18,053 nt of DNA, from IMG/VR virus record IMGVR_UViG_2563366942_000011, one strand, 5' to 3'. Position numbers and translations under genes: made by a program. Shown in pieces: positions 1-17,792 of this stretch (within the stretch, counting starts at the first letter, position 1; each line of letters starts with the position of its first letter). This stretch comes from a virus. Taxonomy: Duplodnaviria > Heunggongvirae > Uroviricota > Caudoviricetes. A model generated the notes under the pieces. The model was not told where the DNA came from. It made no database searches and worked only from the letters and a program-made list of their open reading frames with translations.

Positions 1-1143
1 CTATGCTGTTTTGATATCTACGATAATCCAGTCTTTACCACGATCATCATTGTATCGGTCGGTCATTTTTCTGGATTTATGACCTAACAACTTTTGCGTA
101 TCCAGACCCTGTTCCCGATATAACCGTTCTGACAGAGATCGCTGCTCATGAAATGTGGGCGCAGTTCCTGGCTCCCATTTTATGCCACATTTTTCCCTGG
201 CCTTTTTAAAAGCCGTTGTAAGAGTATTTGCAGACACCTGGTCTCCTCTGTTTGCTTGAGAGGTAGTGTGACGGTAATGGACCAGATATTTACTAACAAC
301 AGCATCCCTGCACTGAGATATAACTTCACGAAGGGTAATATTCAGAGCATCGCATTTCAGGTTAAGCGGAATAGCAAGTTTTGAACCGGTTTTTTCCTGA
401 GTAATGTGCAACATGTCGTCCCAGATATCAGAGAATTTCAAATTGCAGATATCGCCTAAACGTTGTCCAGTGACAAGAGCAAGTAGCATCCCGCATTTTA
501 AATAGGGCTGCCGTCTGCTTACGCTGTCAAATATTGCCTGCCATTCGGGCAGTGATAATCTTTGGCGGTTTACTCGATTTCGCGGTTGTTTTGTTGCCTG
601 CGCTGGGTTAAATCCTGGCGGAACATGTCCTGCGTGTTGTGCTTCTTTGAAGACGTCGATCAACACCATTCTCACGACTTGCGCCATCCTGTTATGACCT
701 TCAGCCTTTACAGCATCAATTATTTCGGCAATATCAAGTGCGGTAATATCCTTGAGGTGTTGCATTCCACAATGCTCACGGAAAAGACGAATGGGTTTGC
801 CTTTTTGCCGATAGGAGTTGGGTCTTAGTTCATTATGTTGCAGCCTGTCCTCCTGGATAGAAATATATTTATCAAGCCATTCTGTCACCGTAATGTCTGA
901 GCGCCTGCCTTTCATTCTTTCTAGACGCTCATTGACGCTTAATATTTGTCGGGTACGTTGTTCAGCAATAATGGTATTTGCTTCAGTAGCAACTTGTTTT
1001 GCTTCATTCTCATCAGTTCCTAAGCTATGAAAACGACCGGATAGTGGATGTTTGTATTGCCAATATACCTTTCCGGTTCGCTTATCTAATTTGCAATATA
1101 AATTGGGTATAGAGATTTTGTGAGATCGGGGTCTAGCAGCCAT
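1..1143 (-). CDS. int: Phage integrase, tyrosine recombinase (lambda Int family)
   Basis: 380-aa ORF; C-terminal region (HEQRSLSERLYREQ...LLGHKSRKMTDRYNDDRGKDW) matches the lambda Int catalytic tail as I recall it; start ATG at 1143 overlaps the original xis 3' end. Confidence 0.95.
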   Translation of the reverse strand: MAARPRSHKISIPNLYCKLDKRTGKVYWQYKHPLSGRFHSLGTDENEAKQVATEANTIIAEQRTRQILSVNERLERMKGRRSDITVTEWLDKYISIQEDRLQHNELRPNSYRQKGKPIRLFREHCGMQHLKDITALDIAEIIDAVKAEGHNRMAQVVRMVLIDVFKEAQHAGHVPPGFNPAQATKQPRNRVNRQRLSLPEWQAIFDSVSRRQPYLKCGMLLALVTGQRLGDICNLKFSDIWDDMLHITQEKTGSKLAIPLNLKCDALNITLREVISQCRDAVVSKYLVHYRHTTSQANRGDQVSANTLTTAFKKAREKCGIKWEPGTAPTFHEQRSLSERLYREQGLDTQKLLGHKSRKMTDRYNDDRGKDWIIVDIKTA

Positions 1144-1209
1144 CAGCGATTATCCGTTGGAGTTTTGGGTTTGCGTTTATTGGGAGTTGCGGTTCTGCAA
1201 GCGTTCCTA

Positions 1210-1218
1210 CAAAACGGG
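1210..1218. repeat. IS1 target-site duplication, left copy (CAAAACGGG)
   Basis: Identical 9-mer at 1210-1218 and 1987-1995 directly flanking the IS1 ends. Confidence 0.95.
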
Positions 1219-1233
1219 GGTAATGACTCCAAC

Positions 1234-1737
1234 TTATTGATAGTGTTTTATGTTCAGATAATGCCCGATGACTTTGTCATGCAGCTCCACCGATTTTGAG
1301 AACGACAGCGACTTCCGTCCCAGCCGTGCCAGGTGCTGCCTCAGATTCAGGTTATGCCGCTCAATTCGCTGCGTATATCGCTTGCTGATTACGTGCAGCT
1401 TTCCCTTCAGGCGGGATTCATACAGCGGCCAGCCATCCGTCATCCATATCACCACGTCAAAGGGTGACAGCAGGCTCATAAGACGCCCCAGCGTCGCCAT
1501 AGTGCGTTCACCGAATACGTGCGCAACAACCGTCTTCCGGAGACTGTCATACGCGTAAAACAGCCAGCGCTGGCGCGATTTAGCCCCGACATAGCCCCAC
1601 TGTTCGTCCATTTCCGCGCAGACGATGACGTCACTGCCCGGCTGTATGCGCGAGGTTACCGACTGCGGCCTGAGTTTTTTAAGTGACGTAAAATCGTGTT
1701 GAGGCCAACGCCCATAATGCGGGCAGTTGCCCGGCAT
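1234..1737 (-). CDS. insB: IS1 InsB' frame (expressed as InsAB' transposase by -1 frameshift)
   Basis: 167-aa ORF matching IS1 InsB; overlaps insA in the -1 frame at the A6C slippery run. Confidence 0.93.
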
Positions 1738-1931
1738 CCAACGCCATTCATGGCCATATCAATGATTTTCTGGTGCGTACCGGGTTGAGAAGCAGTGTAA
1801 GTGAACTGCAGTTGCCATGTTTTACGGCAGTGAGAGCAGAGATAGCGCTGATGTCCGGCGGTGCTTTTGCCGTTACGCACCACCCCGTCAGTAGCTGAAC
1901 AGGAGGGACAGCTGATAGAAACAGAAGCCAC
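1656..1931 (-). CDS. insA: IS1 InsA (transposition inhibitor / N-terminal part of transposase)
   Basis: 91-aa [42 protein letters not shown]..., the InsA zinc-finger sequence. Confidence 0.95.
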
Positions 1932-1986
1932 TGGAGCACCTCAAAAACACCATCATACACTAAATCAGTAAGTTGGCAGCATCACC

Positions 1987-1995
1987 CAAAACGGG
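1987..1995. repeat. IS1 target-site duplication, right copy (CAAAACGGG)
   Basis: Identical 9-mer at 1210-1218 and 1987-1995 directly flanking the IS1 ends. Confidence 0.95.
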
Positions 1996-2285
1996 AATTT
2001 CGGTCAATCATCCAGTAGCGACCAACTTTTATAGCGGGTGGGGCCATCATTTTCCCTTGCGCGTATTTTTTCAGAACTCGCTCACTTGGTGCTAAGTCCC
2101 CAAATTCTTCTTTAGCCCAGTCCTGTAAAGTGATTAGTCGAGACATTTGTCCTCCTCTTAGCTGCTGAGGGAGTTTGTGACCGATATATCTGACATGATA
2201 TTAAGCTCATGGCAGGTACATCTCTTGACTGGTCATAGAGATAAATTTAATGCTGAGAAATGCAGTATTGAATTTATCAATTTTT

Positions 2286-2525
2286 CTATTTCCTGCGTAT
2301 GGCACGTAACTTCTTAATGTGTTCTGCTGTTTCGATCTCTTCAGCTATCCGATCTGCGTCAGCTTTATTCACAGGTTCAAAGTCATGATTAAAGCGGAAC
2401 ATGCTGGCGATACATGTTCTGCCTTTTCGGATGTAGTGAACTTTGTTGTGAGTGGAACGCAGGATTTTGCAGGGAGTGCCGTGGTGGTCGACGTACCAGG
2501 TGTTAGGGTAAATCACTCTGAACAT
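2286..2525 (-). CDS. Hypothetical small protein (79 aa) of the int-proximal accessory region
   Basis: ORF with ATG at 2525 preceded by an AAGG RBS; same strand as the pL operon; no family recognised. Confidence 0.6.
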   Translation of the reverse strand: MFRVIYPNTWYVDHHGTPCKILRSTHNKVHYIRKGRTCIASMFRFNHDFEPVNKADADRIAEEIETAEHIKKLRAIRRK

Positions 2526-2550
2526 TCTTGACCTTGTGTTGTGCGGATTG

Positions 2551-2835
2551 TTATTCAGTGCCGATATTTACCTTTATCGCGTATACCTTTACCGGTTTAT
2601 CACCGAAGTGCGGATGTGTGATTGTCTTCACTTCATATCCGTCATACGGAACATCAACTCTGCGGCTGGAATCGTCGCGCTTCGGATATCCCTTTGTGAT
2701 AATCAGGCGGTCATGCTTACGGTTAACGAGGCGCTTTTTCCAGTAGTCATTACACAGGCGATACTCTTCCGTTTTCTCTCCGCGAATCATGGCATCGAAG
2801 TATTCACCTTTAACGGCAAGTTGCAGGTTAGCCAC
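2551..2835 (-). CDS. ASCH/DUF3850-like small protein
   Basis: GTG start at 2835 six nt after AGGAG; N-terminal ...GEYFDAMIRGEKTEEYR... resembles the ASCH-type motif. The track ORF extends to 2919, but that extension overlaps the upstream gene. Confidence 0.55.
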   Translation of the reverse strand: MANLQLAVKGEYFDAMIRGEKTEEYRLCNDYWKKRLVNRKHDRLIITKGYPKRDDSSRRVDVPYDGYEVKTITHPHFGDKPVKVYAIKVNIGTE

Positions 2836-3568
2836 GGTTAACTCCTTGCTGTGTGGCGTCGAGTAATAAATCCCACAACCGCTGAGAGCAATTTCCGCAT
2901 GTACAGCGTTGACCCACAACGTTTATCGCGTTGCTGATTTCCGGCGTTACCTGTTTAGGAACCATAACCCAACCATCCGGAGTTACCGGAAGCGAGAACG
3001 GCAGCACATCTCTGTGAACAAGTTTTTGCTGTGACAGGTTATCCAGAACTTTCTGTACTGCTGCATCACCGAATACACCAAGCGCATCTGCCATAACTCC
3101 TACAACCTGATAAGCCTCAGCGCATACCGTGGATAAACCATCCGGAATTACCGGAGAGTTGCCGGGTTCTTTAATGTGCAAGCGAGGCTCACCATCTTTT
3201 GGCTCAGGCCACTGGCGCTCCATGTTGATCTTCAATTTATCTTCCATAGCAACGGTAATTTCAGCATCGCTGATGCCAGCACGGCGCTGTGCATCCCACA
3301 ACAGAAACTGCATATCAGCCCACTCGCTAAGATCGTCTGGTTCGGCTGCGGCTTCCAGTGCCTCTTTTGAGAGGTGTTTCAGTGGACCAATGGGGCCAAC
3401 GCAGCCAAATGTGGAGTCAGACCATTTGGCATGCTCGTGGCGAATCTGTTCGCGTTCCAGTGATGCCAGTGCAATTCGTGCTAGTTCCATTTGTTCGCCA
3501 CGAGTAAGCCCGTTTTCAAGCGGATTTTTAATGAACAATTCAATACGTTCTTTGGTAATAGTGGTCAT
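2828..3568 (-). CDS. Putative dATP/dGTP pyrophosphohydrolase-like protein (DUF550-type N-terminal domain) with C-terminal module
   Basis: 246-aa ORF; N-terminal MTTITKERIELF...GEQMELARIALASLEREQIRHEHAKW resembles the DUF550/MazG-like phage family as I recall it; ATGA overlap with the upstream gene. Confidence 0.65.
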   Translation of the reverse strand: MTTITKERIELFIKNPLENGLTRGEQMELARIALASLEREQIRHEHAKWSDSTFGCVGPIGPLKHLSKEALEAAAEPDDLSEWADMQFLLWDAQRRAGISDAEITVAMEDKLKINMERQWPEPKDGEPRLHIKEPGNSPVIPDGLSTVCAEAYQVVGVMADALGVFGDAAVQKVLDNLSQQKLVHRDVLPFSLPVTPDGWVMVPKQVTPEISNAINVVGQRCTCGNCSQRLWDLLLDATQQGVNRG

Positions 3569-3774
3569 GTGTTAATCCTCAAAACTTTATGCCCGGGCGC
3601 AAAAGTACGTGTTTTGTCTTTGCTTATTCGCCACCCGTCTTTACGGGCCTCTTTTGCACAACCAGACCATGACTTACCGATATACTCACCGAAGTCTGGC
3701 ACTGGATATACACCTTCCGTACACTGGCGACAATCACAATAGAGATGCATGGTGTAACTTGCGGCAATAGCCAT
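3565..3774 (-). CDS. Small Cys-rich protein (69 aa), putative zinc-binding
   Basis: ATG at 3774 lies 1 nt after the stop of the 202-aa ORF; product MAIAASYTMHLYCDCRQCTEG... with a CxC..C cluster; stop overlaps the next start (ATGA). Confidence 0.6.
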   Translation of the reverse strand: MAIAASYTMHLYCDCRQCTEGVYPVPDFGEYIGKSWSGCAKEARKDGWRISKDKTRTFAPGHKVLRINT

Positions 3775-3775
3775 A

Positions 3776-4384
3776 TCACTCTCTTTTTCCCTGAAGCATG
3801 GCAGCGTGGCAGGCATCCTCTACGCCCTTAACTGCATCTGCGCAGTAGTTATAGCGATTGCATTCCACTAACTTCTGCCTGAGATTTTCAATTGCTTGCG
3901 CGACATCAGCCTGTATTACAGGAACTGGCGGAACGGCTGTCTGCTGCTCTCGAACGTCATTAGTCGCTATCGGTTCTGCTGCCAACTGACTGGCATATTT
4001 GTTAATGGTAACGATAAGCTCTTGCTCAGCCTCATCCAGACAATCACCGATACCTCGCCTGTCGCCGTCAAAATCATCGAAATCAGCACGAACTCTGGCA
4101 AATTTCAGGATTGCGGACAACACCTCACCAGGAATTACCGGAGAGTTGGTTGACGTTTCCGAAATTTCCCGAAAATTATTGGTTGACGAATTCGCGTTTT
4201 CCCGAAAGTTTCCGGCATGAAGCATAGCCGCGCGGCAGGCGTTCCAGCCTCTCACCTCTGCAATAGCGGCAACAGCATCGACCGCGTACATGCTAAGAGG
4301 GTTAGGCATTGGTTTTTCTTCAGGTACTACTGGCACTGGCTTGGCATATATAGCGGCTGAACATACCAACCCTTTGATAACCAA
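3776..4384 (-). CDS. ea22-family modular protein, linker plus C-terminal module (start uncertain; possibly the frameshifted 3' part of one gene with 4327-4581)
   Basis: Frame opens at TTG 4384 straight after an in-frame stop; contains the linker AKPVPVVPEE and later NSPVIPGE; first ATG is at 4309 (MPNPLSMY...). Confidence 0.55.
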   Translation of the reverse strand: MVIKGLVCSAAIYAKPVPVVPEEKPMPNPLSMYAVDAVAAIAEVRGWNACRAAMLHAGNFRENANSSTNNFREISETSTNSPVIPGEVLSAILKFARVRADFDDFDGDRRGIGDCLDEAEQELIVTINKYASQLAAEPIATNDVREQQTAVPPVPVIQADVAQAIENLRQKLVECNRYNYCADAVKGVEDACHAAMLQGKRE

Positions 4385-4581
4385 CTGTCAGCAATGTTTT
4401 TACTCCTCGTTATTGCCGGAATACCTAAGCCATTGTCTGAATGCAGCCATGCCACCGGATTCTCTTCCAGCGATGCCAGAGCAATTTCATAAGCCCGGCG
4501 CTCAACATTGTCTCGCACATCCAAACTGCTGATACGCTCTTTGATTTCTTTAATCAGTTCTTTGTCGGTAAAAGTGCTCAT
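4327..4581 (-). CDS. ea22-family N-terminal module (85 aa), possibly the 5' part of a frameshifted gene
   Basis: ATG at 4581 lies 1 nt after the ea22-like stop; MSTFTDKELIKEIKERISSLDVRDNVERRAYEIALASLEENP...; overlaps the next frame by 58 nt. Confidence 0.5.
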   Translation of the reverse strand: MSTFTDKELIKEIKERISSLDVRDNVERRAYEIALASLEENPVAWLHSDNGLGIPAITRSKNIADSWLSKGWYVQPLYMPSQCQ

Positions 4582-4582
4582 A

Positions 4583-5347
4583 TCAATCTCCATTGGTATC
4601 AATGTTTACAGCCTGACAAGACTCTTTGAGCACCCAGTCAATAGCGTCTTTCCATGCCTCTGTTTCGACTGGTGGATTTTCACGCTTAACCTGTTCATAG
4701 AAGCGCACTGCTTTAACCAGTCCTTCCGGTACTACTGGTGATGGCTGTTTAGCTTCTAAATCAGCAATTCTGTCAACCACGGCATCGACAGCATCTGAAA
4801 AGCCGAACCAGTTGCTCCACTCCGGCTCATCCCCGGTTGCTGCAAAGTACATATCTGCTAAAGCAGATTCAGCATGGTCACGCTCGTTAATGAGTTGCTC
4901 TTCGCTTTTCTCCAGTTCAGCAATACGCTTACCCCCATCCGAGATAACACCTTCGTAATACTCACGCTGCTCGTTGAGTTTTGATTTTGTCTCCTCAAGC
5001 TCAACTCTCAGCTTCCCAACAGTAAGAGCAATATCCTCGTTCTCCTGGTCGCGGCGTTTTATGTATTGCTGGTTTCTTTCCCGTTCATCCAGCAGTGCCA
5101 GCACAGTAGCCGGATTGGCTGCGGCGATGAATTCAGCATTGGCCTGCTGTTCCATTTGGAAATCTTCATCGAAACCGCTTTCTGGATGCGCTCCTTCAAT
5201 TCTGCAAATGGGAATATATCCAGCAACTTCACGATGAATTAGCGCATAATCACCATCAAATCGGCTCTCTCCATATTCGAGCGACCACTCACCACACGTT
5301 GCTTTTTCTGCCGCTTCACGCAGTGCCTGATAGTTAATTTCGCTCAC
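4583..5347 (-). CDS. ea22: Ea22-like protein
   Basis: GTG start at 5347 overlapping the orf73 stop; product begins (V)SEINYQALREAAE and contains LLDERERNQQYIKRRDQENEDIALTVGKLRVELEE...NEQREYYEGVISDG, matching lambda Ea22 as recalled; divergent ends. Confidence 0.8.
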   Translation of the reverse strand: MSEINYQALREAAEKATCGEWSLEYGESRFDGDYALIHREVAGYIPICRIEGAHPESGFDEDFQMEQQANAEFIAAANPATVLALLDERERNQQYIKRRDQENEDIALTVGKLRVELEETKSKLNEQREYYEGVISDGGKRIAELEKSEEQLINERDHAESALADMYFAATGDEPEWSNWFGFSDAVDAVVDRIADLEAKQPSPVVPEGLVKAVRFYEQVKRENPPVETEAWKDAIDWVLKESCQAVNIDTNGD

Positions 5348-5565
5348 TTCGAACCTCTCTGTTTACTGATAAGCTCCAGATCCTCCTGGCAACTTGCACA
5401 AGTCCGACAACCCTGAACGACCAGGCGTCTTCGTTCATCTATGGGATCGCCACACTCACAACAATGAGTGGCGGATATAGTCTGGTAGTTCAGACGACGC
5501 ATTTTTATTGCTGTATTGCGCTGTAATTCTTCAATTTCTGATGCTGAATCAATGATGTCCGCCAT
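5344..5565 (-). CDS. orf73: DksA/TraR-family C4 zinc-finger protein (lambda Orf73-like)
   Basis: 73-aa ORF with CCECGDPIDERRR...CRTCASC, two CxxC pairs typical of TraR/DksA; same position as lambda orf73. Confidence 0.8.
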   Translation of the reverse strand: MADIIDSASEIEELQRNTAIKMRRLNYQTISATHCCECGDPIDERRRLVVQGCRTCASCQEDLELISKQRGSK

Positions 5566-5611
5566 CTTTCATTAATCCCTGAATTGTTGGTTAATACGCT
5601 TGAGGGTGAAT

Positions 5612-5641
5612 GCGAATAATAAAAAAGGAGCCTGTAGCTCC
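5612..5641 (-). terminator. Intrinsic terminator-like hairpin inside the pL operon (minus strand)
   Basis: Minus strand reads GGAGCTACAGGCTCC followed by TTTTTTATTATT; between the orf61-like gene and orf73. Confidence 0.5.
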
Positions 5642-5663
5642 CTGATGATTTTGCTTTTCATGT

Positions 5664-5945
5664 TCACCGTTCCTTAAAGACGCCGTTTAACATGCCGATC
5701 GCCAGGCTTAAATGAGTCGGTGTGAATCCCATCAGCGTTACCGTTTCGCGGTGCTTCTTTAGTACGCTACGGCAAATGTCATCGACGTTTTTATCCGGAA
5801 ACTGCTGTCTGGCTTTTTTGATTTCAGAATTAGCCTGACGGGCAATGCTGCGAAGGGCGTTTTCTTGCTGAGGTGTCACTGAACAAGCCCCATGTCGGCA
5901 AGCATAAGCACACAGAATATGAAGCCCGCTGCCAGAAAAATGCAT
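5664..5945 (-). CDS. Lambda orf61-like small protein (start uncertain)
   Basis: Open frame whose C-terminal two-thirds (VTPQQENALRSIARQANSEIKKARQQFPDK...GMLNGVFKER) is lambda-region-like; true start may be internal (GTG at VTPQQ). Confidence 0.6.
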   Translation of the reverse strand: MHFSGSGLHILCAYACRHGACSVTPQQENALRSIARQANSEIKKARQQFPDKNVDDICRSVLKKHRETVTLMGFTPTHLSLAIGMLNGVFKER

Positions 5946-5955
5946 TCAGTGGTTG

Positions 5956-6147
5956 TCATACCTGGTCTCTCTCATCTGCTTCTGCTTTCGCCACCATCAT
6001 TTCCAGCTTTTGTGAAAGGGATGTGGCTAACGTATGAAATTCTTCGTCTGTTTCTACTGGTATTGGCACAAACCTGACTCCAATTTGAGCAAGGCTATGT
6101 GCCATCTCAATACTCGTTCTTAACTCAACAGGAGATGCTTTGTGCAT
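5956..6147 (-). CDS. orf63: Lambda Orf63-like protein
   Basis: 63-aa [40 protein letters not shown]... in the lambda orf63 position. Confidence 0.8.
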   Translation of the reverse strand: MHKASPVELRTSIEMAHSLAQIGVRFVPIPVETDEEFHTLATSLSQKLEMMVAKAEADERDQV

Positions 6148-6302
6148 ACCGCCTCCCGTTTATTATTTATCTTCTCAGCCAGCCGCTGTGCTTTCAGTGG
6201 ATTTCTGATAACAGAAAGGCCGGGAAATACCCAGCCTCGCTTTGTAACGGAGTAGACGAAAGTGATCGCGCCTACCCGGATATTATCGTGAGGATGCGTC
6301 AT
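6120..6302 (-). CDS. orf60a: Lambda Orf60a-like protein
   Basis: [43 protein letters not shown]...; ATG at 6302 overlaps the exo stop (ATGA). Confidence 0.8.
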
Positions 6303-6979
6303 CGCCATTGCTCCCCAAATACAAAACTAATTTCAGCCAGTGCCTCGTCCATTTTTTCGATGAACTCCGGCACCATCTCGTCAAAACTCGCCATGTACTT
6401 TTCATCCCGCTCAACCACGACATAATGCAGTCCTTCACGCTTCATACGCGGGTCATAGTTGGCAAAGTACCAGGCATCTTTTCGCGTCACCCACATGCTG
6501 TACTGCACCTGGGCCATGTAAGCCGATTTTATGGCCTCGAAACCACCGAGCCGGAACTTCATGAAATCCCGGGAGGTAAACGGGCATTTCAGCTCAAGGC
6601 CGTTGCCGTCACTGCATAAACCATCGGGAGAGCAGGCGGTGCGCATACTTTCGTCGCGATAGATGATCGGGGATTCAGTAACATTCACGCCGGAAGTAAA
6701 CTCAAACAGGGCTCTGGCGTCGTTCTCGTACTGTTTTCCCCAAGCCAGCGCCTTAGCGTTAACTTCCGGAGCCACACCGGTGCAAACCTCAGCAAGCAGG
6801 GTGTGGAAGTAGGACATTTTCATGTCAGGCCATTTCTTTCCGGAGCGGGGTTTTGCTATCACGTTGTGAACTTCTGAAGCGGTGATGACGCCGAGCCGTA
6901 ATTTGTGCCATGCATCATCCCCCTGTTCGACAGCTCTCACGTCGATCCCGGTACGCTGCAGGATAATGTCCGGTGTCAT
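6299..6979 (-). CDS. exo: Lambda exonuclease (Red alpha)
   Basis: 226-aa [68 protein letters not shown]..., matching lambda Exo as recalled. Confidence 0.97.
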
Positions 6980-7761
6980 GCTGCCACCTTCTGCTCAGTG
7001 GCTTTCTGTTTCAGGAATCCAAGAGCTTTCACTGCTTCGGTCTGTGTCAGTTCTGACGATGCGCGAATGTCGCGGCGAAATATCTGGGAACAGAGCGGCA
7101 ATAAGTCGTCATCCCATGTTTTATCCAGGGCGATCAGCAGAGTGTTAATCTCCTGCATGGTTTCATCGTTAACCGGAGTGATGTCGCGTTCCGGCTGACG
7201 TTCTGCAGTGTATGCGGTATTTTCGACAATGCGCTCGGCTTCATCCTTGTCATAGATACCAGCAAATCCGAAGGCGAGACGGGCACACTGAATCATGGCT
7301 TTATGCCGTAACATCCGTTTGGGATGCGACTGCCACGGCCCCGTGATTTCTCTGCCTTCGCGGGTTTTGAATGGTTCGCGGCGGCATTCATCCATCCACT
7401 CGGTAACGCAGATCGGATGATTGCGGTCTTTGCGGTAAATCCGGCATGTACATGATTCATTGTCCTGCTCAAAGTCCATACCATCAAACTGCTGGTTTTC
7501 ATTGATGATGCGGGACCAGCCATCAACGCCCACCACCGGAACAATGCCGTTCTGCTTATCAGGGAAGGCGTAAATTTCTTTCGTCCACGGATTAAGGCCG
7601 TACTGGTTGGCGACGATCAACAATGCGATGAACTGCGCATCGCTGGCATCACCTTTAAATGCCGTCTGGCGAAGAGTGGTGATCAGTTCCTGTGGGTCGA
7701 CAGAATCCATGCCGACACGTTCAGCCAGCTTCCCTGCCAGCGTTGCGAGTGCTGTACTCAT
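6976..7761 (-). CDS. bet: Single-strand annealing protein Bet (Red beta)
   Basis: 261-aa [69 protein letters not shown]..., matching lambda Bet almost residue-for-residue as recalled. Confidence 0.97.
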
Positions 7762-7766
7762 CCGTT

Positions 7767-8063
7767 TTATACCTCTGAATCAATATCAGCCTGATGGTGA
7801 GCAATGGTTTCAACTATGTACCGGATGTGTTCTGCCATGCGCTCCTGAAACTCAACATCGTCATCAAACGCACGGGTAATGGCTTTTTTGCTGGCCCCGT
7901 GGCGTTGTAAATGATCGATGCATAGCGATTCAAACAGGTGCTGGGGCAGGCCTTTTTCCATGTCGTCTGCCAGTTCTGCCTCTTTCTCTTCACGGGCGAT
8001 CTGCTGGTAGTGACGCGCCCAGCTCTGAGCCTCAAGACGATCCTGAATGTAATAAGCGTTCAT
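7767..8063 (-). CDS. gam: Gam, RecBCD inhibitor (short 98-aa form)
   Basis: [60 protein letters not shown]...; the upstream ATG at 8184 is in a different frame. Confidence 0.95.
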
Positions 8064-8138
8064 GGCTGAACTCCTGAAAATGGCTGTGAAAATATCGCCC
8101 GCGAAATGCCAGGCTGATTAGGAAAACAGGAAAGGGGG

Positions 8139-8282
8139 TTAGTGAATGCTTTTGCTTGATCTCAGTTTCAGTATTAATATCCATTTTTTATAAGCGTCGA
8201 CGGCCTCACGAAACATCTTTTCATCGCCAATAAAAGTGGCGATAGTGAATTTAGTCTGGATAGCCATAATTGTTTGATCCAT
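8139..8282 (-). CDS. kil: Kil (host cell-division inhibitor), 47 aa
   Basis: [47 protein letters not shown] from ATG 8282. The 89-aa track ORF is this gene with a spurious 5' extension that overlaps cIII in another frame. Confidence 0.85.
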
Positions 8283-8415
8283 TTTTTGGGACTCCTGGCT
8301 GATTAAGTATGTCGATAAGGCGTTTCCATCCGTCACGTAATTTACGGGTGATTCGTTCAAGTAAAGATTCGGAAGGGCAGCCAGCAACAGGCCACCCTGC
8401 AATGGCATATTGCAT
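8251..8415 (-). CDS. cIII: CIII (FtsH/HflB inhibitor that stabilises CII), 54 aa
   Basis: Hand translation from ATG 8415: [54 protein letters not shown]; too short for the ORF track; overlaps kil by 32 nt as in lambda. Confidence 0.9.
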   Translation of the reverse strand: MQYAIAGWPVAGCPSESLLERITRKLRDGWKRLIDILNQPGVPKNGSNNYGYPD

Positions 8416-8487
8416 GGTGTGCTCCTTATTTATACATAACGAAAAACGCCTCGAGTGAAGCGTAATTGGTATGCGGTAACGCCGCGC

Positions 8488-8856
8488 TCAGGCGGCCTTG
8501 ATAGTCATATCATCTGAATCAAATATTCCTGATGTATCGATATCGGTAATTCTTATTCCTTCACTACCATCCATTGGAGGCCATCCTTCCTGACCATTTC
8601 CATCATTCCAGTCGAACTCACACACAACACCATATGCATTTAAGTCGCTTGAAATTGCTATAAGCAGAGCATGTTGCGCCAGCATGATTAATACAGCATT
8701 TAATACAGAGCCGTGTTTATTGAGTCGGTATTCAGAGTCTGACCAGAAATTATTAATCTGGTGAAGTTTTTCCTCTGTCATTACGTCATGGTCAATTTCA
8801 ATTTCTATTGATGCTTTCCAGTCGTAATCAATGATGTATTTTTTGATGTTTGACAT
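8488..8856 (-). CDS. ea10: Ea10-like protein
   Basis: 122-aa ORF MSNIKKYIIDYDWKASIEIEIDHD... in the lambda ea10 position. Confidence 0.85.
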   Translation of the reverse strand: MSNIKKYIIDYDWKASIEIEIDHDVMTEEKLHQINNFWSDSEYRLNKHGSVLNAVLIMLAQHALLIAISSDLNAYGVVCEFDWNDGNGQEGWPPMDGSEGIRITDIDTSGIFDSDDMTIKAA

Positions 8857-8873
8857 CTATTCATATCCTCATA

Positions 8874-8902
8874 GATAAAAAATCGCCCTCACACTGGAGG
8901 GC
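8874..8902 (-). terminator. Terminator-like hairpin between ral and ea10 (minus strand)
   Basis: Minus strand reads GCCCTCCAGTGTGAGGGC followed by GATTTTTTATC. Confidence 0.45.
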
Positions 8903-9038
8903 AAAGAAGATTTCCAATAATCAGAACAAGTCGGCTCCTGTTTAGTTACGAGCGATATTGCTCCGTGTATTCACTCGTTGGAATGAATACACAGTGCAGT
9001 GTTTATTCTGTTATTTATGCCAAAAATAAAGGCCACTA

Positions 9039-9239
9039 TCAGGCAGCTTTGTTGTTCTGTTTACCAAGTTCTCTGGCAATCATTGCCGTCGTTCGTATTG
9101 CCCATTTATCGACATATTTCCCATCTTCCATTACAGGAAACATTTCTTCAGGCTTAACCATGCATTCCGATTGCAGCTTGCATCCATTGCATCGTTTGAA
9201 TTGTCCACACCATTGATTTGTATCAATAGTCGTAGTCAT
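9039..9239 (-). CDS. ral: Ral (restriction alleviation)
   Basis: 66-aa ORF MTTTIDTNQWCGQFKRCNGCKLQSECMVKPEEMF... in the lambda ral position. Confidence 0.88.
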   Translation of the reverse strand: MTTTIDTNQWCGQFKRCNGCKLQSECMVKPEEMFPVMEDGKYVDKWAIRTTAMIARELGKQNNKAA

Positions 9240-9309
9240 ACGGATAGTCCTGGTATTGTTCCATCACATCTTGAGGATGCTCTTCGAACTCTTCAAATTC
9301 TTCTTCCAT
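9223..9309 (-). CDS. Small acidic ORF (28 aa), lambda orf28-like
   Basis: MEEEFEEFEEHPQDVMEQYQDYPYDYDY; overlaps the ral start by 17 nt; below the ORF-track length cutoff. Confidence 0.4.
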   Translation of the reverse strand: MEEEFEEFEEHPQDVMEQYQDYPYDYDY

Positions 9310-9479
9310 ATATCACCTTAAATAGTGGATTGCGGTAGTAAAGATTGTGCCTGTCTTTTAACCACATCAGGCTCGGTGGTTCTCGTGTACCCCTACAACG
9401 AGAAATCGGATAAACTCTATTCACCCCTACAGAGAGCAAAAGAGAAACGCCGATGAACAACTCATGGTGGTAGGAACTA

Positions 9480-10034
9480 ATGCATTTTTTCCTGCAAGGA
9501 ATGACACTTAAACAGTTGATTCATATGCTAATCATCCTGATCATATTGATTATTGTTATGCCGGTAAGCGTAAAAGAATGGATAAACCTGCATAATCCAG
9601 AAATCCTTCCTCATTACTGGATGTATTACATCCTGTTGTTTTGCGTTAGCTATGTGCTTAACGGCGTTGTTAATTCCGCTTATCACGCTGTGACTGAAAG
9701 AATTGAGGTATTCGCTGCTCAGAAGCGCAAATCTAAAGAAGAAAAATATGTGCAAGATTTGTTTGATTCGTTAACTCTTGGAGAAAGAGCGTATTTGGCA
9801 TTCGCTGTAGCCGCTAATAACCAGCTACAAACGGAAAAGGGCGCTCATGAATCAATTTCATTGCTCAAAAAAGGACTCCTCGTTCGAAGGCCTCCTGCTG
9901 TTGGATATCCTGATACCGACCGTTTCGTTATCCCTGAAAGCTATAGACATGAGTGCTACATTAGGTTTGCCGGGAAGGCAGACAGCCTTATGGATGAACT
10001 TATCGCTCAGGATAAGCATGGCAAAAACAAGTAA
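9480..10034 (+). CDS. sieB: Superinfection exclusion protein B (SieB-like, membrane)
   Basis: 184-aa plus-strand ORF with a hydrophobic N-terminus (LIHMLIILIILIIVMPV...), convergent with N as sieB is in lambda and Rac. Confidence 0.8.
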   Translation: MHFFLQGMTLKQLIHMLIILIILIIVMPVSVKEWINLHNPEILPHYWMYYILLFCVSYVLNGVVNSAYHAVTERIEVFAAQKRKSKEEKYVQDLFDSLTLGERAYLAFAVAANNQLQTEKGAHESISLLKKGLLVRRPPAVGYPDTDRFVIPESYRHECYIRFAGKADSLMDELIAQDKHGKNK

Positions 10035-10050
10035 TTAGCAAATGAATTTA

Positions 10051-10323
10051 TCATCTCGCCGTCAGTTGTTTTGATTTCCGGTAGCCTGCCGCGTAAAGAG
10101 CTACGTTCGGAAGACAAGTTGAACCTTCATATTTTCTGGTCAACGTTGTCAGAGTTATCACTTCTGCTCTCATTGCTGGTTTGAGCTTGCATTGCAAGAC
10201 CACTCGTGAAGGGGGTGGCCTGTGTAGCTTGTCGGAGCTGATCGCCTCCTGACTTTGCAGATTTGCGCGACGAGCTCTACGGCGAGAAGCTGCGGTGCCT
10301 TTAAATTCTGTTTTTCTGGACAT
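10051..10323 (-). CDS. N: N-family transcription antiterminator (non-lambda; C-terminus resembles P22 gp24 as recalled)
   Basis: ATG at 10323 behind a GGAGGA RBS; 90 aa beginning MSRKTEFKGTAASRRRARRANLQ (arginine-rich motif) and ending ...VALYAAGYRKSKQLTAR. The 114-aa track ORF is a 5' over-extension. Confidence 0.75.
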   Translation of the reverse strand: MSRKTEFKGTAASRRRARRANLQSQEAISSDKLHRPPPSRVVLQCKLKPAMRAEVITLTTLTRKYEGSTCLPNVALYAAGYRKSKQLTAR

Positions 10324-10421
10324 GGATTCCTCCCGAATAAACTTTGGCGATGCAATCTCGAAGCTCCTCCTGAGACGGTTGCTTCGGCATTGCATCCCAC
10401 AGCTTATGTGGTTGGGTGATC

Positions 10422-10466
10422 TGGCTTTTCAGCCACGTAGTCGAGAGTCGACGTTGTTTAAAGAGC
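10422..10466 (-). promoter_or_regulatory. nutL: nutL: boxA (GCTCTTTAAACAACG) + spacer hairpin + boxB (TGGCTGAAAAGCCA)
   Basis: Minus strand reads GGCTCTTTAAACAACGTCGACTCTCGACTACGTGGCTGAAAAGCCAG about 100 nt upstream of N; same architecture as the nutR candidate. Confidence 0.6.
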
Positions 10467-10499
10467 CTGCCAGTCTGTTCCATTTGGCTTCCAGCGTCC

Positions 10500-10560
10500 T
10501 GCTGACGGTTAAATAGTACGATATGTACTTTACAAGATCAATACAATTTGTTGTAAGTTG
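10500..10560 (-). promoter_or_regulatory. pL/oL region: candidate -35 TTGATC, -10 TACTAT and palindromic operators
   Basis: AGTAC-N5-GTACT at 10515-10529 overlapping the putative spacer and -10; ACAA-N4-TTGT at about 10543-10554. Confidence 0.4.
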
Positions 10561-10724
10561 GCGTGGTTTTTTATAACGCTTTGTATTTAATAGTGTTGTT
10601 TTTTAGCGTGGATGTATTGCCTCGGCGATGTAAGGAGAGATCAGAATTGCGTGGTTTAGTGGGTTGCATCTATTTATTTTTCAATAAATATAATTGGTTA
10701 TGTGTTTTTAGGTGGGCGAACGTG

Positions 10725-10753
10725 AGGCAAAGAAAACCCGGCGCTGAGGCCGG
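10725..10753 (-). terminator. Intrinsic terminator ending the cI / two-gene cassette transcript (t-imm analogue)
   Basis: Minus strand reads CCCGGCCTCAGCGCCGGG followed by TTTTCTTTG, just downstream of the 250-aa gene stop. Confidence 0.6.
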
Positions 10754-10759
10754 GTTGTA

Positions 10760-11512
10760 TTATGCTGCAAGTCTCTTAACCCAAGTCTCTCTTTTGGAGA
10801 ATGGTAGAACTTGGCTTGATTCATGGAAGAGTAAGGAGAGTTGTTGCATTTGATCACCAATTGCTTCGCTGTCTATAACAACAAATCTGTTGTTATACTC
10901 CTCACTTGAAGCTTTAAGATCAATTAGTTTCCCAAGCAATGAGTAAGCACTATTCCAGCTTCCTCCGTGTTTCACGCTTGATGTAAAAACGTATTTAGGT
11001 ATGTCGGTTTTTATTGTTACAGGGACGGTAATTTGATGTCCACTCAAGCCATATACGTTTTCACGAAGAGAAAGTGCGTCTCTAAGCTCTGTGTGATATA
11101 GATAATCAATAACCATACTTTCAAACTTTTCAGCTTGAACTGGCTGATACCAGTCTAACGACAAAGTTGATGCGAGTATACCAGCTCTAATTATGTTCGA
11201 TGTAATCGCACCGACATCCTTTTCTGTTGCCCAAGCAATGATTTCTCCTCGAGCATTGAGTTCTGCGCCTTCTTTAAGCAGTAATTGTCGTATCTCATCA
11301 AGTCGTTTTTTGGTAAGCGAGATCCCTCTTGCCTCCATATTCATTAAGGCATCGCATCTGTCACTAACTAAATACCTACCATTGACTTCACGGATAAAGG
11401 CACCGACATGCTCTCCATCATCACAGTAAGTGAATGGACTGATAATTCTCAAGGTCTTGCCTATTGGATGGCATTCGAAACCTAGTTGTGAGATCACTGT
11501 TGAGCACATCAT
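10760..11512 (-). CDS. Uncharacterised 250-aa protein, distal gene of a two-gene cassette at the rexAB-equivalent locus
   Basis: ATG ATG start overlaps the upstream stop (ATGA); no long hydrophobic segments; AT-rich relative to flanks; no known family recognised. Confidence 0.8.
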   Translation of the reverse strand: MMCSTVISQLGFECHPIGKTLRIISPFTYCDDGEHVGAFIREVNGRYLVSDRCDALMNMEARGISLTKKRLDEIRQLLLKEGAELNARGEIIAWATEKDVGAITSNIIRAGILASTLSLDWYQPVQAEKFESMVIDYLYHTELRDALSLRENVYGLSGHQITVPVTIKTDIPKYVFTSSVKHGGSWNSAYSLLGKLIDLKASSEEYNNRFVVIDSEAIGDQMQQLSLLFHESSQVLPFSKRETWVKRLAA

Positions 11513-12066
11513 ATTCCAAACCCCATTTGCCCCGACTCATCTTCAAGCGGTAAAGGTATTCTCCCAGAGTAAGTTATGTTCAGATGTTTACAGAAGTAAT
11601 TCCAATACCCTACCAGGTCATCTGGGTTTATGTCATCTTCGATTGGAAACGCTATTCTATCACTATAGTATCCAGCTTCTTCATAGTATACATGGTAGTG
11701 AGCACCGTAAATGATATCTTGGTACTTCGGATGATCGACCTTGTAACTATTCGTGTGTTTGTCAAAGTGATAGGTATCTACCGCGAAAACCCTCTTGTTA
11801 TGATAGAAAGCAATAATATTTATTTTAGGGTAAGAAATCGGGTCATCAGGTTCTGAATCCTGATCTGGTTTCCATTTCAGTTCAAACTTTAGCCCTTGTA
11901 TAGGTATACAATCCTCATCCAAGGGGATGATATGGGCTTGTAGCCACATATCAGAGCGACTTGGTTTCTGTTTCCATTTAACGCCAGAAAAGTTAACTAT
12001 TTTTTTACAATAAAGTACTTTATCAACTTCTACTTGGCTTGGCTGATAATCATCTATTTTTGCCAA
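11509..12066 (-). CDS. Uncharacterised 185-aa protein, proximal gene of a two-gene cassette at the rexAB-equivalent locus
   Basis: Frame opens at TTG 12066 straight after an in-frame stop, 40 nt downstream of the cI stop; aromatic/His-rich stretch DHPKYQDIIYGAHYHVYYEEAGYY; AT-rich. Confidence 0.75.
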   Translation of the reverse strand: MAKIDDYQPSQVEVDKVLYCKKIVNFSGVKWKQKPSRSDMWLQAHIIPLDEDCIPIQGLKFELKWKPDQDSEPDDPISYPKINIIAFYHNKRVFAVDTYHFDKHTNSYKVDHPKYQDIIYGAHYHVYYEEAGYYSDRIAFPIEDDINPDDLVGYWNYFCKHLNITYSGRIPLPLEDESGQMGFGI

Positions 12067-12105
12067 TGTTTACCGCCCTGTAAATTGTAGATAAAAGTGG
12101 TTTCA

Positions 12106-12765
12106 TCACCCAAACGTCTCTTCAGGCCATTGGCTGGCGATAACTTTCCCCACAACGGAACAACTCTCATTGCATGGGATCATTGGGTATTGTGGGTTTA
12201 GTGGCTGTAGAAACACCTGACCGCTATCCCTGATCAGTTTCTTGAAGGTAAATTCATCACCACCAAGTCTGGCTATGCAGAAATCGCCGGGCTCAACAGC
12301 TTGCTCAGGGTCAACCAGAATTAACATCCCGTCAGGAAAGCTGGGTTTGGAACCTGTTGGTGCGGTCATTGAGTTACCTTCAACCTCAAGCCAGAATGCA
12401 GAGTCACTGGCTTTTTTGGTTGTGCTTACCAATCTCTCCGCATCGCCTTTGGTAAAGGTTCTGAGTTCTGGAGAGAACATCCCAGCCTGAACATGAGAAA
12501 AAACAGGGTACTCATATTGTTTTTTAACTGGGGCCGATGAGTATTCGCCAACAGGTGAAAATGTCCCGTCGTGGTTGAATGATATGTTATCAATACCAAG
12601 GTATTTAAACACCACACCAATATCACTAAGAGATGGATGACGAGATCCGCGCAACCAGTGTCCAATCCCACCCTGCGTCATACCTAGCTCTTCGGCTAAC
12701 TTCTCTTGAGTTATGCCGAGCTCTTTCATTCTGGATCTAGCCAGTTCATACCATTTCATTTTCAT
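12106..12765 (-). CDS. cI: CI repressor, hybrid: non-lambda HTH (XRE-type) N-terminal domain with lambda-type C-terminal domain
   Basis: C-terminal ~135 aa ([29 protein letters not shown]...[10 protein letters not shown]) match lambda CI CTD as recalled; N-terminal [40 protein letters not shown] is a different HTH. Start chosen at the ATG with an AAGGA RBS; the track's 5' extension is probably not translated. Confidence 0.88.
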
Positions 12766-12875
12766 GTCCTTATTATTACGCTCTGTACTGGAACCATCCA
12801 TGCACAATGTGTATTTTTACTTGTATTCGCAAAGTACATATTGTATTTTTTATTCGTGTTTACTATGGAGGGCAT
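12766..12875. promoter_or_regulatory. oR region with divergent pRM/pR candidates and operator-like repeats
   Basis: 110-bp cI-cro intergenic region; AGTACATATTGTATT at 12833-12847 is a degenerate copy of the oL palindrome; additional TGTA/TACA half-sites. Confidence 0.45.
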
Positions 12876-13091
12876 ATGAGCAACCTACGAAAATATCGAG
12901 AGTCACTGAATATCTCTCAAACAACACTTGCTAAGGCAGTTGGATGCACACAGGGAGCTATCGGACATTGGGAATCTGGTCGTCGCTTCCCAGACCTTAA
13001 AACATGCCGTGCTCTTGTTGCGTGCCTAAACAAGTTAGGCGCAAAAGTCAGTCTTGATGACGTGTTCCCGCCGGAACACAAAGCCGCTTAA
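12876..13091 (+). CDS. cro: Cro-like repressor (XRE-type HTH)
   Basis: ATG at 12876 behind a GGAGGG RBS; 71 aa MSNLRKYRESLNISQTTLAKAVGCTQGAIGHWESGRR...; its recognition-helix region resembles that of cI (TQGGIGHW vs TQGAIGHW). Confidence 0.82.
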   Translation: MSNLRKYRESLNISQTTLAKAVGCTQGAIGHWESGRRFPDLKTCRALVACLNKLGAKVSLDDVFPPEHKAA

Positions 13092-13101
13092 TAAGCGGAT
13101 C

Positions 13102-13147
13102 CGCTCTTTGTAACAACGGACATTCGTCCTACGTCGCTGAAAAGCGA
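13102..13147 (+). promoter_or_regulatory. nutR: nutR: boxA (CGCTCTTTGTAACAACG) + spacer hairpin (GGACATTCGTCC) + boxB (TCGCTGAAAAGCGA)
   Basis: Immediately downstream of the cro stop; same architecture as nutL, including the TACGT element before boxB and the GAAAA loop. Confidence 0.6.
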
Positions 13148-13232
13148 GTTCCAAGATATCTGACCAACTAAGGCCATATGCGTTTCCACGCATACCTTTC
13201 AACTAACTATTCACTATTGGAAATCTTAAGAA

Positions 13233-13529
13233 ATGGAAAGAACAAGTTACAGCAAACTATCACAGCGTGACGTTGATCGCGCAGAAACAGATTTACTTAT
13301 CAATCTGTCAGCTATTACCCAGCGCGGTCTGGCAAAGATGATTGGCTGTCATGAATCGAAGATAAGCAGAACGGACTGGAGATTTATTGCTTCGGTCTTG
13401 TGTGCTTTCGGAATGGCATCAGACATCAGTCCGATTAGCAGGGCTTTTAAGTATGCGCTTGATGGACTCACCAATAAAAAACGCCCGGCGGCAACCGAGC
13501 GTTCTGAACAAATCCAGATGGAATTCTGA
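13233..13529 (+). CDS. cII: CII transcriptional activator, hybrid (non-lambda N-terminal part, lambda-identical C-terminus)
   Basis: 98-aa ORF ending ...LTNKKRPAATERSEQIQMEF, identical to the lambda CII tail as recalled; N-terminal two-thirds differ. Confidence 0.85.
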   Translation: MERTSYSKLSQRDVDRAETDLLINLSAITQRGLAKMIGCHESKISRTDWRFIASVLCAFGMASDISPISRAFKYALDGLTNKKRPAATERSEQIQMEF

Positions 13530-13551
13530 GGTCATTACTGGATCAATCCAC
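13474..13551 (-). ncRNA. oop: OOP antisense RNA (antisense to the cII 3' end)
   Basis: Plus strand AATAAAAAACGCCCGGCGGCAACCGAGCGTTCTGAACAAATCCAGATGGAATTCTGAGGTCATTACTGGATCAATCCAC is, a few substitutions aside, the reverse complement of lambda OOP RNA as recalled, including the GCCGCCGGGCG-U6 terminator. Confidence 0.7.
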
Positions 13552-13561
13552 AGGAGTCATT

Positions 13562-14461
13562 ATGACAAATACAGCAAAAATACTCAACTTCTGCAGAGGT
13601 AACTTTGCCAAACAGGAGCGTAATGTGGCAGATCTCGATGATGGTTACGCCAGACTATCAAATATGCTGCTTGAGGCTTATTCAGGCGCAGATCTGACCA
13701 AGCGACAGTTTAAAGTGCTGCTTGCCATTCTGCGTAAAACCTATGGATGGAATAAACCAATGGACAGAATCACCGATTCTCAACTTAGCGAGATTACAAA
13801 GTTACCCGTCAAACGGTGCAATGAAGCCAAGTTAGAACTCGTCAGAATGAATATTATCAAGCAGCAAGGCGGCATGTTTGGACCAAATAAAAACATCTCA
13901 GAATGGTGTATCCCTCAAAACGAGGGAAAATCCCCTAAAACGAGGGATAAAACATCCCTCAAATTGGGGGATTGCTATCCCTCAAAACAGGGGGACACAA
14001 AAAACACTATTACAAAAGAAAAAAGAAAAGATTATTCGTCAGAGAATTCTGGCGAATCCTCTGACCAGCCAGAAAACGACCTTTCTGTGGTGAAACCGGA
14101 TGCTGCAATTCAGAGCGGCAGCAAGTGGGGGACAGCAGAAGACCTGACCGCCGCAGAATGGATGTTTGACATGGTGAAGACCATCGCGCCATCAGCCAGA
14201 AAACCGAATTTTGCAGGGTGGGCTAACGATATCCGCCTGATGCGTGAACGTGACGGACGTAACCATCGCGACATGTGTGTACTGTTCCGCTGGGCATGCC
14301 AGGACAACTTCTGGTCCGGTAACGTGCTGAGCCCGGCCAAACTCCGCGACAAGTGGACCCAGCTCGAAATCAACCGTAACAAGCAACAGGCAGGTGTGAC
14401 AGCCTGCAAACCAAAACTCGACCTGACAAACACTGACTGGATTTACGGGGTGGATTTATGA
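13562..14461 (+). CDS. O: Replication initiator O
   Basis: 299-aa ORF MTNTAKILNFCRGNFAKQERNVADLDDGYARLSNMLLEAYSGADLTKRQFKVLLAILRKTYGW..., near-identical to lambda O as recalled; contains the ori iterons. Confidence 0.97.
   Translation: MTNTAKILNFCRGNFAKQERNVADLDDGYARLSNMLLEAYSGADLTKRQFKVLLAILRKTYGWNKPMDRITDSQLSEITKLPVKRCNEAKLELVRMNIIKQQGGMFGPNKNISEWCIPQNEGKSPKTRDKTSLKLGDCYPSKQGDTKNTITKEKRKDYSSENSGESSDQPENDLSVVKPDAAIQSGSKWGTAEDLTAAEWMFDMVKTIAPSARKPNFAGWANDIRLMRERDGRNHRDMCVLFRWACQDNFWSGNVLSPAKLRDKWTQLEINRNKQQAGVTACKPKLDLTNTDWIYGVDL
13909..14040. repeat. Lambda-type replication origin: four ~19-bp iterons plus adjacent A/T-rich segment, inside O
   Basis: TATCCCTCAAAACGAGGGAAA / ATCCCCTAAAACGAGGGATAA / ACATCCCTCAAATTGGGGGAT / CTATCCCTCAAAACAGGGGGACA followed by CAAAAAACACTATTACAAAAGAAAAAAGAAAAG. 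Confidence 0.9.
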
Positions 14462-15159: not shown

Positions 15160-15446
15160 CGGGCAAAGAGGCAATTATTCATTACCTGGGGACGCATAAT
15201 AGCTTCTGTGCGCCGGACGTTGCCGCGCTAACAGGCGCAACAGTAACCAGCATAAATCAGGCCGCGGCTAAAATGGCACGGGCAGGTCTTCTGGTTATCG
15301 AAGGTAAGGTCTGGCGAACGGTGTATTACCGGTTTGCTACCAAGGAAGAACGGGAAGGAAAGATGAGCACGAACCTGATTTTTAAGGAGTGTCGCCAGAG
15401 TGCCACGATGAAACGGATATTGGCGGTATATGGAGTTAAAAGATGA
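15156..15446 (+). CDS. ren: Ren (Rex exclusion resistance)
   Basis: 96-aa ORF MTGKEAIIHYLGTHNSFCAPDVAALTGATVTSINQAAAKMARAGLLVIEGKVWRTVYYRF..., matching lambda Ren as recalled. Confidence 0.92.
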   Translation: MTGKEAIIHYLGTHNSFCAPDVAALTGATVTSINQAAAKMARAGLLVIEGKVWRTVYYRFATKEEREGKMSTNLIFKECRQSATMKRILAVYGVKR

Positions 15447-15470
15447 CCATCTACATCACTGAGCTAATAA

Positions 15471-15503
15471 CAGGCCTGCAGGTAATCGCAGGCCTTTTTA
15501 TTT
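15471..15503 (+). terminator. tR2-like intrinsic terminator
   Basis: AGGCCTGC-AGGTAATC-GCAGGCCT hairpin followed by TTTTTATTT, between ren and ninB. Confidence 0.8.
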
Positions 15504-15519
15504 GGGGGAGAGGGAAGTC

Positions 15520-17188: not shown

Positions 17189-17207
17189 AAGAGGGGGTTA
17201 TTAAGGC

Positions 17208-17707: not shown

Positions 17708-17792
17708 AGTCAGAGATAACAATCAACTAATACTGTTTTGTTGATTTTTGCTTGTAATTGGCGTTCTGGTCTGATTTTTGTGGAGTAAGTTG

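Follow-up and report, generated by a model that had tools for sequence, protein, structure and literature searches.

Interruption of the excisionase gene of a phage 21-type prophage by IS1 in Escherichia coli KTE36 and its probable effect on excision

Analysis of the early prophage region of E. coli KTE36 revealed a complete IS1 inserted at codon 53/54 of the excisionase gene xis. This arrangement probably reflects a single, recent and simple IS1 transposition, which left a tail-less Xis stub, would strongly reduce Int-Xis excision by analogy with lambda, and would represent an early stage of prophage decay. The window, meaning the whole stretch of 18,053 nucleotides that was analysed, corresponds to the last 18,053 bases of the contig KE136761.1 (600,093 bp; GCA_000407965.1, E. 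coli KTE36). The contig ends at position 18053, inside the Q antiterminator gene, so that the visible part is the early half of the prophage, while the late genes, attR and any sitABCD genes that KTE36 may have fall outside the view.

The IS1 element and the divided xis gene

Recomputation of coordinates and repeats from the sequence showed that the IS1 is complete, with 768 bp located at 1219..1986 on the minus strand, having IRL at the 1986 end and IRR at the 1219 end, and that it is flanked by two copies of CAAAACGGG, the left one at 1210..1218 and the right one at 1987..1995. The identity between the flanks ended at exactly 9 bp on both sides, which is the typical size of an IS1 target-site duplication. 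Read on the minus strand, the element starts with GGTGATGCTGCCAACTTACTG (left end) and finishes with AAGTTGGAGTCATTACC (right end), and its terminal inverted repeats are imperfect, with 18 of the first 23 bases complementary, the ends matching the IRL and IRR of IS1. The transposase strand runs in the same direction as xis and int and carries insA (1656..1931, minus strand; 91 amino acids, GTG start), with the Pfam domains Zn_ribbon_InsA and HTH_Tnp_IS1, and the insB' frame (1234..1737, minus strand), which contains a DDE domain (Pfam DDE_Tnp_IS1, E-value 5.9e-78). A single A6C slippery motif was found in the element (1674-1680, minus strand), and a -1 frameshift at this motif, reconstructed in silico, generated an InsAB' fusion of 232 amino acids. 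These features agree with the 768 bp and the 232-aa InsAB' described for IS1 (PMC12428005). Among the matches listed, which come from thousands of records, the IS1 portion was approximately 97.5-99.5% identical to annotated IS1A and IS1B copies of E. coli. Length, terminal repeats, the insA/insB' frames with the A6C motif, the 9-bp duplication and the near-identity to known copies all identify the element as IS1, in accordance with the first-pass annotation, which had described a complete 768-bp IS1 with a perfect 9-bp duplication inside xis.

The xis gene starts at 2146 on the minus strand. Its 5' fragment (1982..2146, minus strand), as read from the sequence, comprises 53 native codons, one glycine codon and a TGA stop placed inside IS1 (1984-1982); the segment 2146..1987 has 160 nt, corresponding to 53 codons plus one nucleotide, and the frame continues into IS1 as G/GG TGA, giving a stub of 54 amino acids (MSRL...NSRFG). 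It had been proposed that the 53 codons read into IS1 and stop after 8 more; the 53 native codons were recovered, whereas the extension is reduced to a single codon (Gly) before the TGA, the figure of eight being obtained when IS1 is read in frame from its first base (GGT GAT GCT ... TAG). The 3' fragment (1133..1218, minus strand), which was located by tblastn and frame reading, holds codons 54-78 and the stop at 1135-1133; in frame 2 it reads RFVGTLAEPQLPINANPKLQRIIADGC followed by the stop, with codons 52-53 repeated from the duplication, and residues 52-78 of the phage 21 Xis mapped to 1216-1136 with 100% identity. As described before, these remaining 25 codons lie beyond IS1 and still overlap int, whose ATG is at 1143, by 11 nt.

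The proposed deletion of IS1 and one copy of the repeat in silico generated a continuous open reading frame of 78 codons, whose stop at 1133 lies within int, past its ATG (1143), so that the two genes overlap. The predicted protein was 100% identical to the Xis of phage 21 (M61865, OL657228, UniProt VXIS_BPP21), and more than 25 other phage records contain an identical Xis. Chance was excluded, since the IS1 part matches IS1A/IS1B copies and its removal exactly restores a known protein. The restored Xis scored 26.5 bits against PF07825 (Exc), above the cut-off of 23 bits, and the 54-aa stub alone scored 21.9 bits, just under it. The int-xis module of phage 21 (VXIS_BPP21; M61865), ev017 and PhiR57_1 has the same gene order, in which the end of xis likewise overlaps the start of int; however, xis was intact in all 27 phage records with at least 99% identity, while in KTE36 it is split after codon 53.

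The KTE36 assembly is a draft and its contig is the only one that spans both IS1 junctions, and these facts would fit an assembly artefact in which an IS1 copy was misplaced in the draft scaffold. Such an error is practically negligible, however, as the identical xis-to-IRL junction occurs in five independent assemblies (ENA, JGI, and Logan), the perfect 9-bp duplication combined with the exact restoration of the reading frame is the signature of real transposition, and the IS1 region contains no Ns.

The host prophage, its chromosomal site and the age of the insertion

The host prophage is best classified as a phage-21-type lambdoid prophage (Jouyvirus, ev017-like) located beside icd in E. 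coli KTE36. Phage 21 and e14 are known to use icd as their attachment gene. In L003 it is found 127 bp past the int stop, and homology to the phage extends to approximately 285 bp beyond int. The chromosome beyond int, including attL and icd, was identical to that of E. coli MS 21-1 over 2,782 bp. To the right of IS1, 16 kb showed 99.9% identity, over the full length, to ev017 and PhiR57_1, and 100.0% identity to the MS 21-1 prophage. Once IS1 was removed, the window was colinear with the MS 21-1 prophage over 17,276 bp, with no gaps and four SNPs, namely two synonymous ones, in int and cII, and two missense ones; the comparison with ev017 (NC_049948; Jouyvirus, the genus of phage 21) over 17,276 bp revealed eight mismatches and one gap of 1 bp, in the cI-cro intergenic region. 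No indel relative to MS 21-1 was found in cI, N, O, P, kil, gam/bet/exo or the nin region, which leaves IS1 as the only structural lesion visible in the prophage.

The comparison with the empty site in related strains, as had been recommended, revealed the IS-free allele in MS 21-1, in ev017 and in 1,620 of the 5,426 complete genomes of E. coli (identity of 99% or more in most of them), and the xis region was intact in approximately 1,620 of 1,627 genomes. The allele with IS1 in xis was present in none of the 5,426 complete genomes. The only two full-coverage matches to the IS1-bearing query, EC2341 and AHB24, were discarded as carriers: they share with KTE36 the IS family, the prophage type, the recombination module and the chromosomal site, but their IS1 copies are inserted in int, at two different positions, and their xis is intact. 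Besides, the prophage of EC2341 is far more degraded than that of KTE36, with bet and a replication gene truncated and a second IS1.

The exact stub was recovered on approximately 13-20 contigs, whose sources are KTE36, a single metagenome assembly each from ENA and JGI, and several Logan runs. The contigs carrying it were identical over the compared length, of up to 10 kb, and the xis-to-IRL junction was common to all of them. Because the carrier contigs are identical, the duplication is perfect and the transposase is intact, the data point to IS1 having entered xis once, and recently, and to a single clone as its carrier. The same features, together with the absence of the allele from the 5,426 genomes and the four SNPs that separate the window from its IS-free sister prophage, strengthen the earlier suggestion that the insertion is fairly recent.

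Proteins of 54 amino acids ending in ...SRFV, which belong to the same cluster, were also considered as a second IS site and rejected, as they proved to be mostly partial sequences at contig ends plus one genuine nonsense allele. This allele, G55*, results from a GGA-to-TGA change at xis codon 55 and was carried by two contigs from metagenomes; in one of these, int is truncated as well.

Predicted effects on Xis, Int and excision

The fold of the restored Xis was modelled with AlphaFold2 from 11 orthologues, with moderate confidence (mean pLDDT 69). The model showed beta strands at residues 4-6, 38-41, and 44-48, alpha helices at 7-18 and 22-30, a low-confidence linker at 53-60 (pLDDT below 50) and a helix at 68-75. 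The best five matches of the model in the PDB were all Xis of lambda or HK022, with probability of 0.97-1.0, RMSD of 2.1-2.5 Å over 44-47 columns and TM scores of 0.50-0.71 (target-normalised); the Foldseek E-values were weak (0.02-0.1) because the domain is small. A phmmer search of the phage 21 Xis against PDB sequences returned no Xis, only chance matches to Ig proteins, and the link to lambda Xis was therefore drawn from Pfam and from the fold search. Within the moderate confidence of the model, the restored Xis is predicted to have the winged-helix fold of lambda Xis.

The amino acid identity between the phage 21 and lambda Xis is low (about 21-23%), and the break corresponds to residue 56 of lambda Xis in a global pairwise alignment and to approximately residue 49 according to the Pfam end-points. 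Under either alignment, the model has the break, which follows residue 53, falling where the DNA-binding domain gives way to the tail. The 54-aa stub would thus retain the predicted winged-helix DNA-binding domain, while the insertion removes the linker and the C-terminal helix (residues 54-78). Alignment of orthologues of the tail from five other genera (Salmonella, Citrobacter, Trabulsiella, Mangrovibacter, and Cronobacter) revealed invariant positions at G55, L57, A66, P68, R72, I73, I74, D76, and G77.

In lambda, Xis 1-55 was used as a DNA-binding construct for crystallography (PMC7145599), the last 18 residues are missing in crystal structures, and the C-terminus of X1-bound Xis faces the N-terminal domain of Int at P2, which is consistent with cooperative binding (PMC4880445). 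C-terminal truncation of lambda Xis (Xis 1-55; Numrych et al., 1992, cited in PMC4880445) falls at the same boundary between the winged helix and the flexible tail. Truncated there, lambda Xis still binds DNA but is without the portion turned towards Int at P2, and the KTE36 stub would be alike by position. On the other hand, compared with lambda Xis, the tail of phage 21 Xis is longer, is not basic and has a predicted helix at 68-75, in addition to the low overall identity.

Transferred to KTE36, the lambda data suggest that the tail-less Xis would still bind attR and that, without the tail, it could neither help Int to occupy the arm site nor build the excisive intasome, so that Int-Xis excision would be strongly reduced, probably not to zero. 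As the rest of the visible prophage is intact, SOS induction should nevertheless set off its replication in situ and kill the host, with few phages released. Since the stub should bind attR yet fail to recruit Int, strong impairment of excision can be soundly inferred from the analogy and is plausible, and it may be leaky. The prophage had been described as probably locked in place, and this lock may leak, as prophages of O157 Sakai with a defective Xis still gave circles. Sp4 and Sp14 of this strain are, like the KTE36 prophage, lambdoid elements in which Int is present and a functional Xis is apparently missing (PMC2669165). They offer a guide to the behaviour to be expected in KTE36, but differ in that their Xis lacks the DNA-binding motif and that they bear many other prophage defects, while KTE36 keeps the predicted domain and loses the tail.

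According to a reading that we regard as rather unlikely, though of some weight, function is leaky to the point that the stub, or Int alone with host IHF and Fis, still supports excision to a degree that leaves the prophage unlocked in practice, and the only effect of IS1 is a lower phage yield. The stub does keep the whole predicted domain for DNA binding and bending, and Sp4 and Sp14, with an intact Int and a defective Xis, formed circles after mitomycin C treatment (PMC2669165), which the authors took to mean that excision can proceed with integrase alone (PMC2669165; similar in PMC6908951). Against it, the Xis tail is strongly conserved among orthologues, the lambda tail faces the N-terminal domain of Int at P2, consistent with cooperative binding (PMC4880445), and the circles of Sp14 occurred at a significantly lower level (PMC2669165). 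Strong reduction of Int-Xis excision thus remains the preferred reading.

No second xis was found in the 18,053-nt window nor in the full genome of ev017, which carries one xis only. The first-pass annotation had named a second intact xis elsewhere in the prophage as a finding that would contradict its proposal, and the window contains none; the late half of the prophage lies outside the window. The late half, the attR side or the rest of the genome may hold further defects or encode a compatible Xis that acts in trans.

The int gene (1..1143, minus strand) encodes a tyrosine integrase of 380 amino acids, of the phage 21/icd type, with the Pfam domains Arm-DNA-bind_1 and Phage_integrase. The protein is intact, with all six residues of the lambda catalytic set (R-K-H-R-H-Y) aligned and conserved; it is identical to the Int of MS 21-1 and has four amino acid substitutions relative to the old phage 21 record M61865. 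By its domain content, with an arm-DNA-binding domain present, it is assigned to the heterobivalent integrases. With IS1 and the duplication, the distance from int to the preceding genes grows by 777 bp, and the overlap of the complete xis with int is lost, which corroborates the earlier description of an intact Int separated by IS1 from the genes upstream.

A promoter-like site was found inside IRL (1952..1979, minus strand) by consensus match only, and no other such match occurs from the xis start to int; its position is that of the weak IS1 promoter, PIS1, which overlaps IRL (PMC12428005). No intrinsic terminator was detected on the transcribed strand, and no outward hybrid promoter was detected at the IS1-int junction, so that constitutive expression of int is not indicated. 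Likewise, no match to a CII-type pI promoter (TTGC-N6-TTGC) was found near 2100-2300, the overall count of the motif being below chance. The N protein suppresses the polarity of IS elements, and N-antiterminated transcripts from pL probably continue to supply Int, though perhaps less of it, since translational coupling with xis would be lost. Around 1977, Pilacinski, Zissler and Szybalski reportedly found that IS2 in lambda xis led to constitutive int expression (int-c mutants). These mutants, a classical precedent, would resemble KTE36 in that a lambdoid phage has its xis, which lies upstream of int, interrupted by an IS, with a different IS; a literature search for them retrieved nothing relevant.

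The stub might also act as a dominant-negative "anti-excisionase", occupying attR without recruiting Int and thereby actively holding a Sit-type prophage in the chromosome, and we consider this very improbable. If it were true, the stub, together with Int derived from pL or from IS1 read-through, would retain the prophage even when the Xis of a related phage is supplied in trans.

Prophage decay and the question of domestication

The insertion had also been interpreted as domesticating the neighbouring accessory genes, and this part was not supported, as the other visible genes match a deposited phage genome and nothing points to selection for the allele. The comparison with MS 21-1 revealed no loss of lethal lytic functions (regulation and replication) in the visible early half. 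Since cI, N, O, P, kil and the nin/Q-side genes are essentially identical to those of a deposited phage genome, induction should still kill the host, and "regional replication" has been described after prophage induction (PMC2669165). The allele is thus probably an early step of prophage decay, neutral or mildly beneficial to the host, rather than a finished domestication.

The complete genome of ev017 carries as cargo sitABCD, an OmpC-like porin and bor, and this cargo element is of the "PAI-icd" Sit/Iss type tabulated for many ExPEC strains; such icd-inserted Sit/Iss islands are common in ExPEC and of varied sizes, down to remnants of 12 kb (PMC7545054). It is conceivable, on this account, that the insertion was selected for fixing a beneficial cargo prophage of this type, and the independent lesions that affect this module (two genomes with IS1 in int, and xis G55*) and the occurrence of the IS1-in-xis allele in several independent samples would also be in line with such adaptive grounding. 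It is improbable, however, as these lesions are very rare (approximately 1,620 of 1,627 xis regions are intact, and the allele occurs in 0 of 5,426 genomes) and have come about in different ways, the carriers are all identical, representing a single clone, neither recurrence nor a sweep is evident, and an excision block leaves the lethality of induction, given the intact cI, N, O, P, and kil. An early step of prophage decay is therefore retained as the explanation.

The components of the arrangement, namely IS1, the phage 21 Xis, icd-integrated Sit prophages and IS-mediated prophage decay, are already known, and disruption of prophage recombination genes by IS elements is well documented; the KTE36 allele adds one more example of such events and reveals no new mechanism. 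Its importance is modest. It illustrates the very first step of prophage decay, ahead of any other lesion, and its main use is that the prophages of KTE36 and MS 21-1, which differ by IS1 and four SNPs over 17.3 kb, constitute a clean natural pair for measuring the effect of the loss of the Xis tail on excision, on phage yield and on the retention of a clinically common family of icd-inserted prophages, whose complete relative, ev017, carries sitABCD. In addition, the 54-aa stub of E. coli KTE36 is deposited at NCBI as EOU93669.1 with the simple label "excisionase", and this annotation merits correction.

Disrupted xis and int alleles in related prophages

Analysis of other contigs carrying short xis products revealed an independent nonsense allele of this gene, in which codon 55 is changed from GGA to TGA. 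The allele is present in two metagenome contigs (L016, positions 1134-1298, and L018, positions 916-1080), and its product has 54 amino acids, ending in ...SRFV. In L016, the int gene downstream of the nonsense xis is likewise shortened, to 252 amino acids. Four further short contigs (L013-L015 and L017) terminate exactly at xis codons 54-55; a break in the assembly graph at this polymorphic site is the probable reason.

The icd prophages of E. coli EC2341 and AHB24 each carry one IS1 within int, and not in xis, at two different positions; the corresponding regions lie at 6017-6714 of the EC2341 locus (L001) and at 6016-6713 of the AHB24 locus (L002). Elsewhere, the EC2341 icd prophage shows extensive degradation, and another copy of IS1 is present in it. 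In addition, ATCC 25922/Seattle 1946 and its relatives (genome matches H99-H107) have an insertion of ISEc52 (IS3 family), of approximately 2.5 kb, in the same prophage. This element, which lies somewhere in the region matching window positions 1996-18053, is a further independent IS insertion into this prophage.

The flank beyond int and the arrangement of icd

Directly past the int stop codon, at approximately 12147-12431 of the KTE36 contig locus (L003), KTE36 and MS 21-1 show a 13-bp offset compared to the deposited Jouyvirus phage genome ev017. The offset was seen as overlapping exact matches to ev017, a pattern which suggests a short tandem duplication or an indel near attL. As it is common to both lysogens, it has no link to IS1. 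In the old phage 21 int-xis record (GenBank M61865), an icd pseudogene fragment is annotated upstream of xis, at 537-700; the lysogens, by contrast, have icd on the far side of int.

End of the source contig

The source contig ends at window position 18053, within the gene of the Q antiterminator (quuD in MS 21-1), likely because the Q/ompC-like/lysis region is repeated among the lambdoid prophages of the genome. The visible part of the KTE36 prophage therefore does not extend to its late genes, its sitABCD cargo or attR.

The cI-cro intergenic region and the genes between N and cI

In the cI-cro intergenic region, ev017 has one additional T at window position 12845 compared to both KTE36 and MS 21-1. 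This position presumably falls in the operator/promoter region, and the extra T could have a bearing on the plaque or induction phenotype of the phage.

The slot between N and cI, which in lambda is filled by rexAB, is occupied in the KTE36 prophage by two overlapping genes on the minus strand (window 10760-12066), encoding proteins of 250 and 185 amino acids. Pfam analysis of this pair returned DUF1828 and a weak match to DUF6978, while PADLOC returned the candidate defence systems PDC-M24B (E = 4.7e-10) and PDC-M24A (E = 4.8e-4). The two genes may represent a prophage-encoded defence pair.
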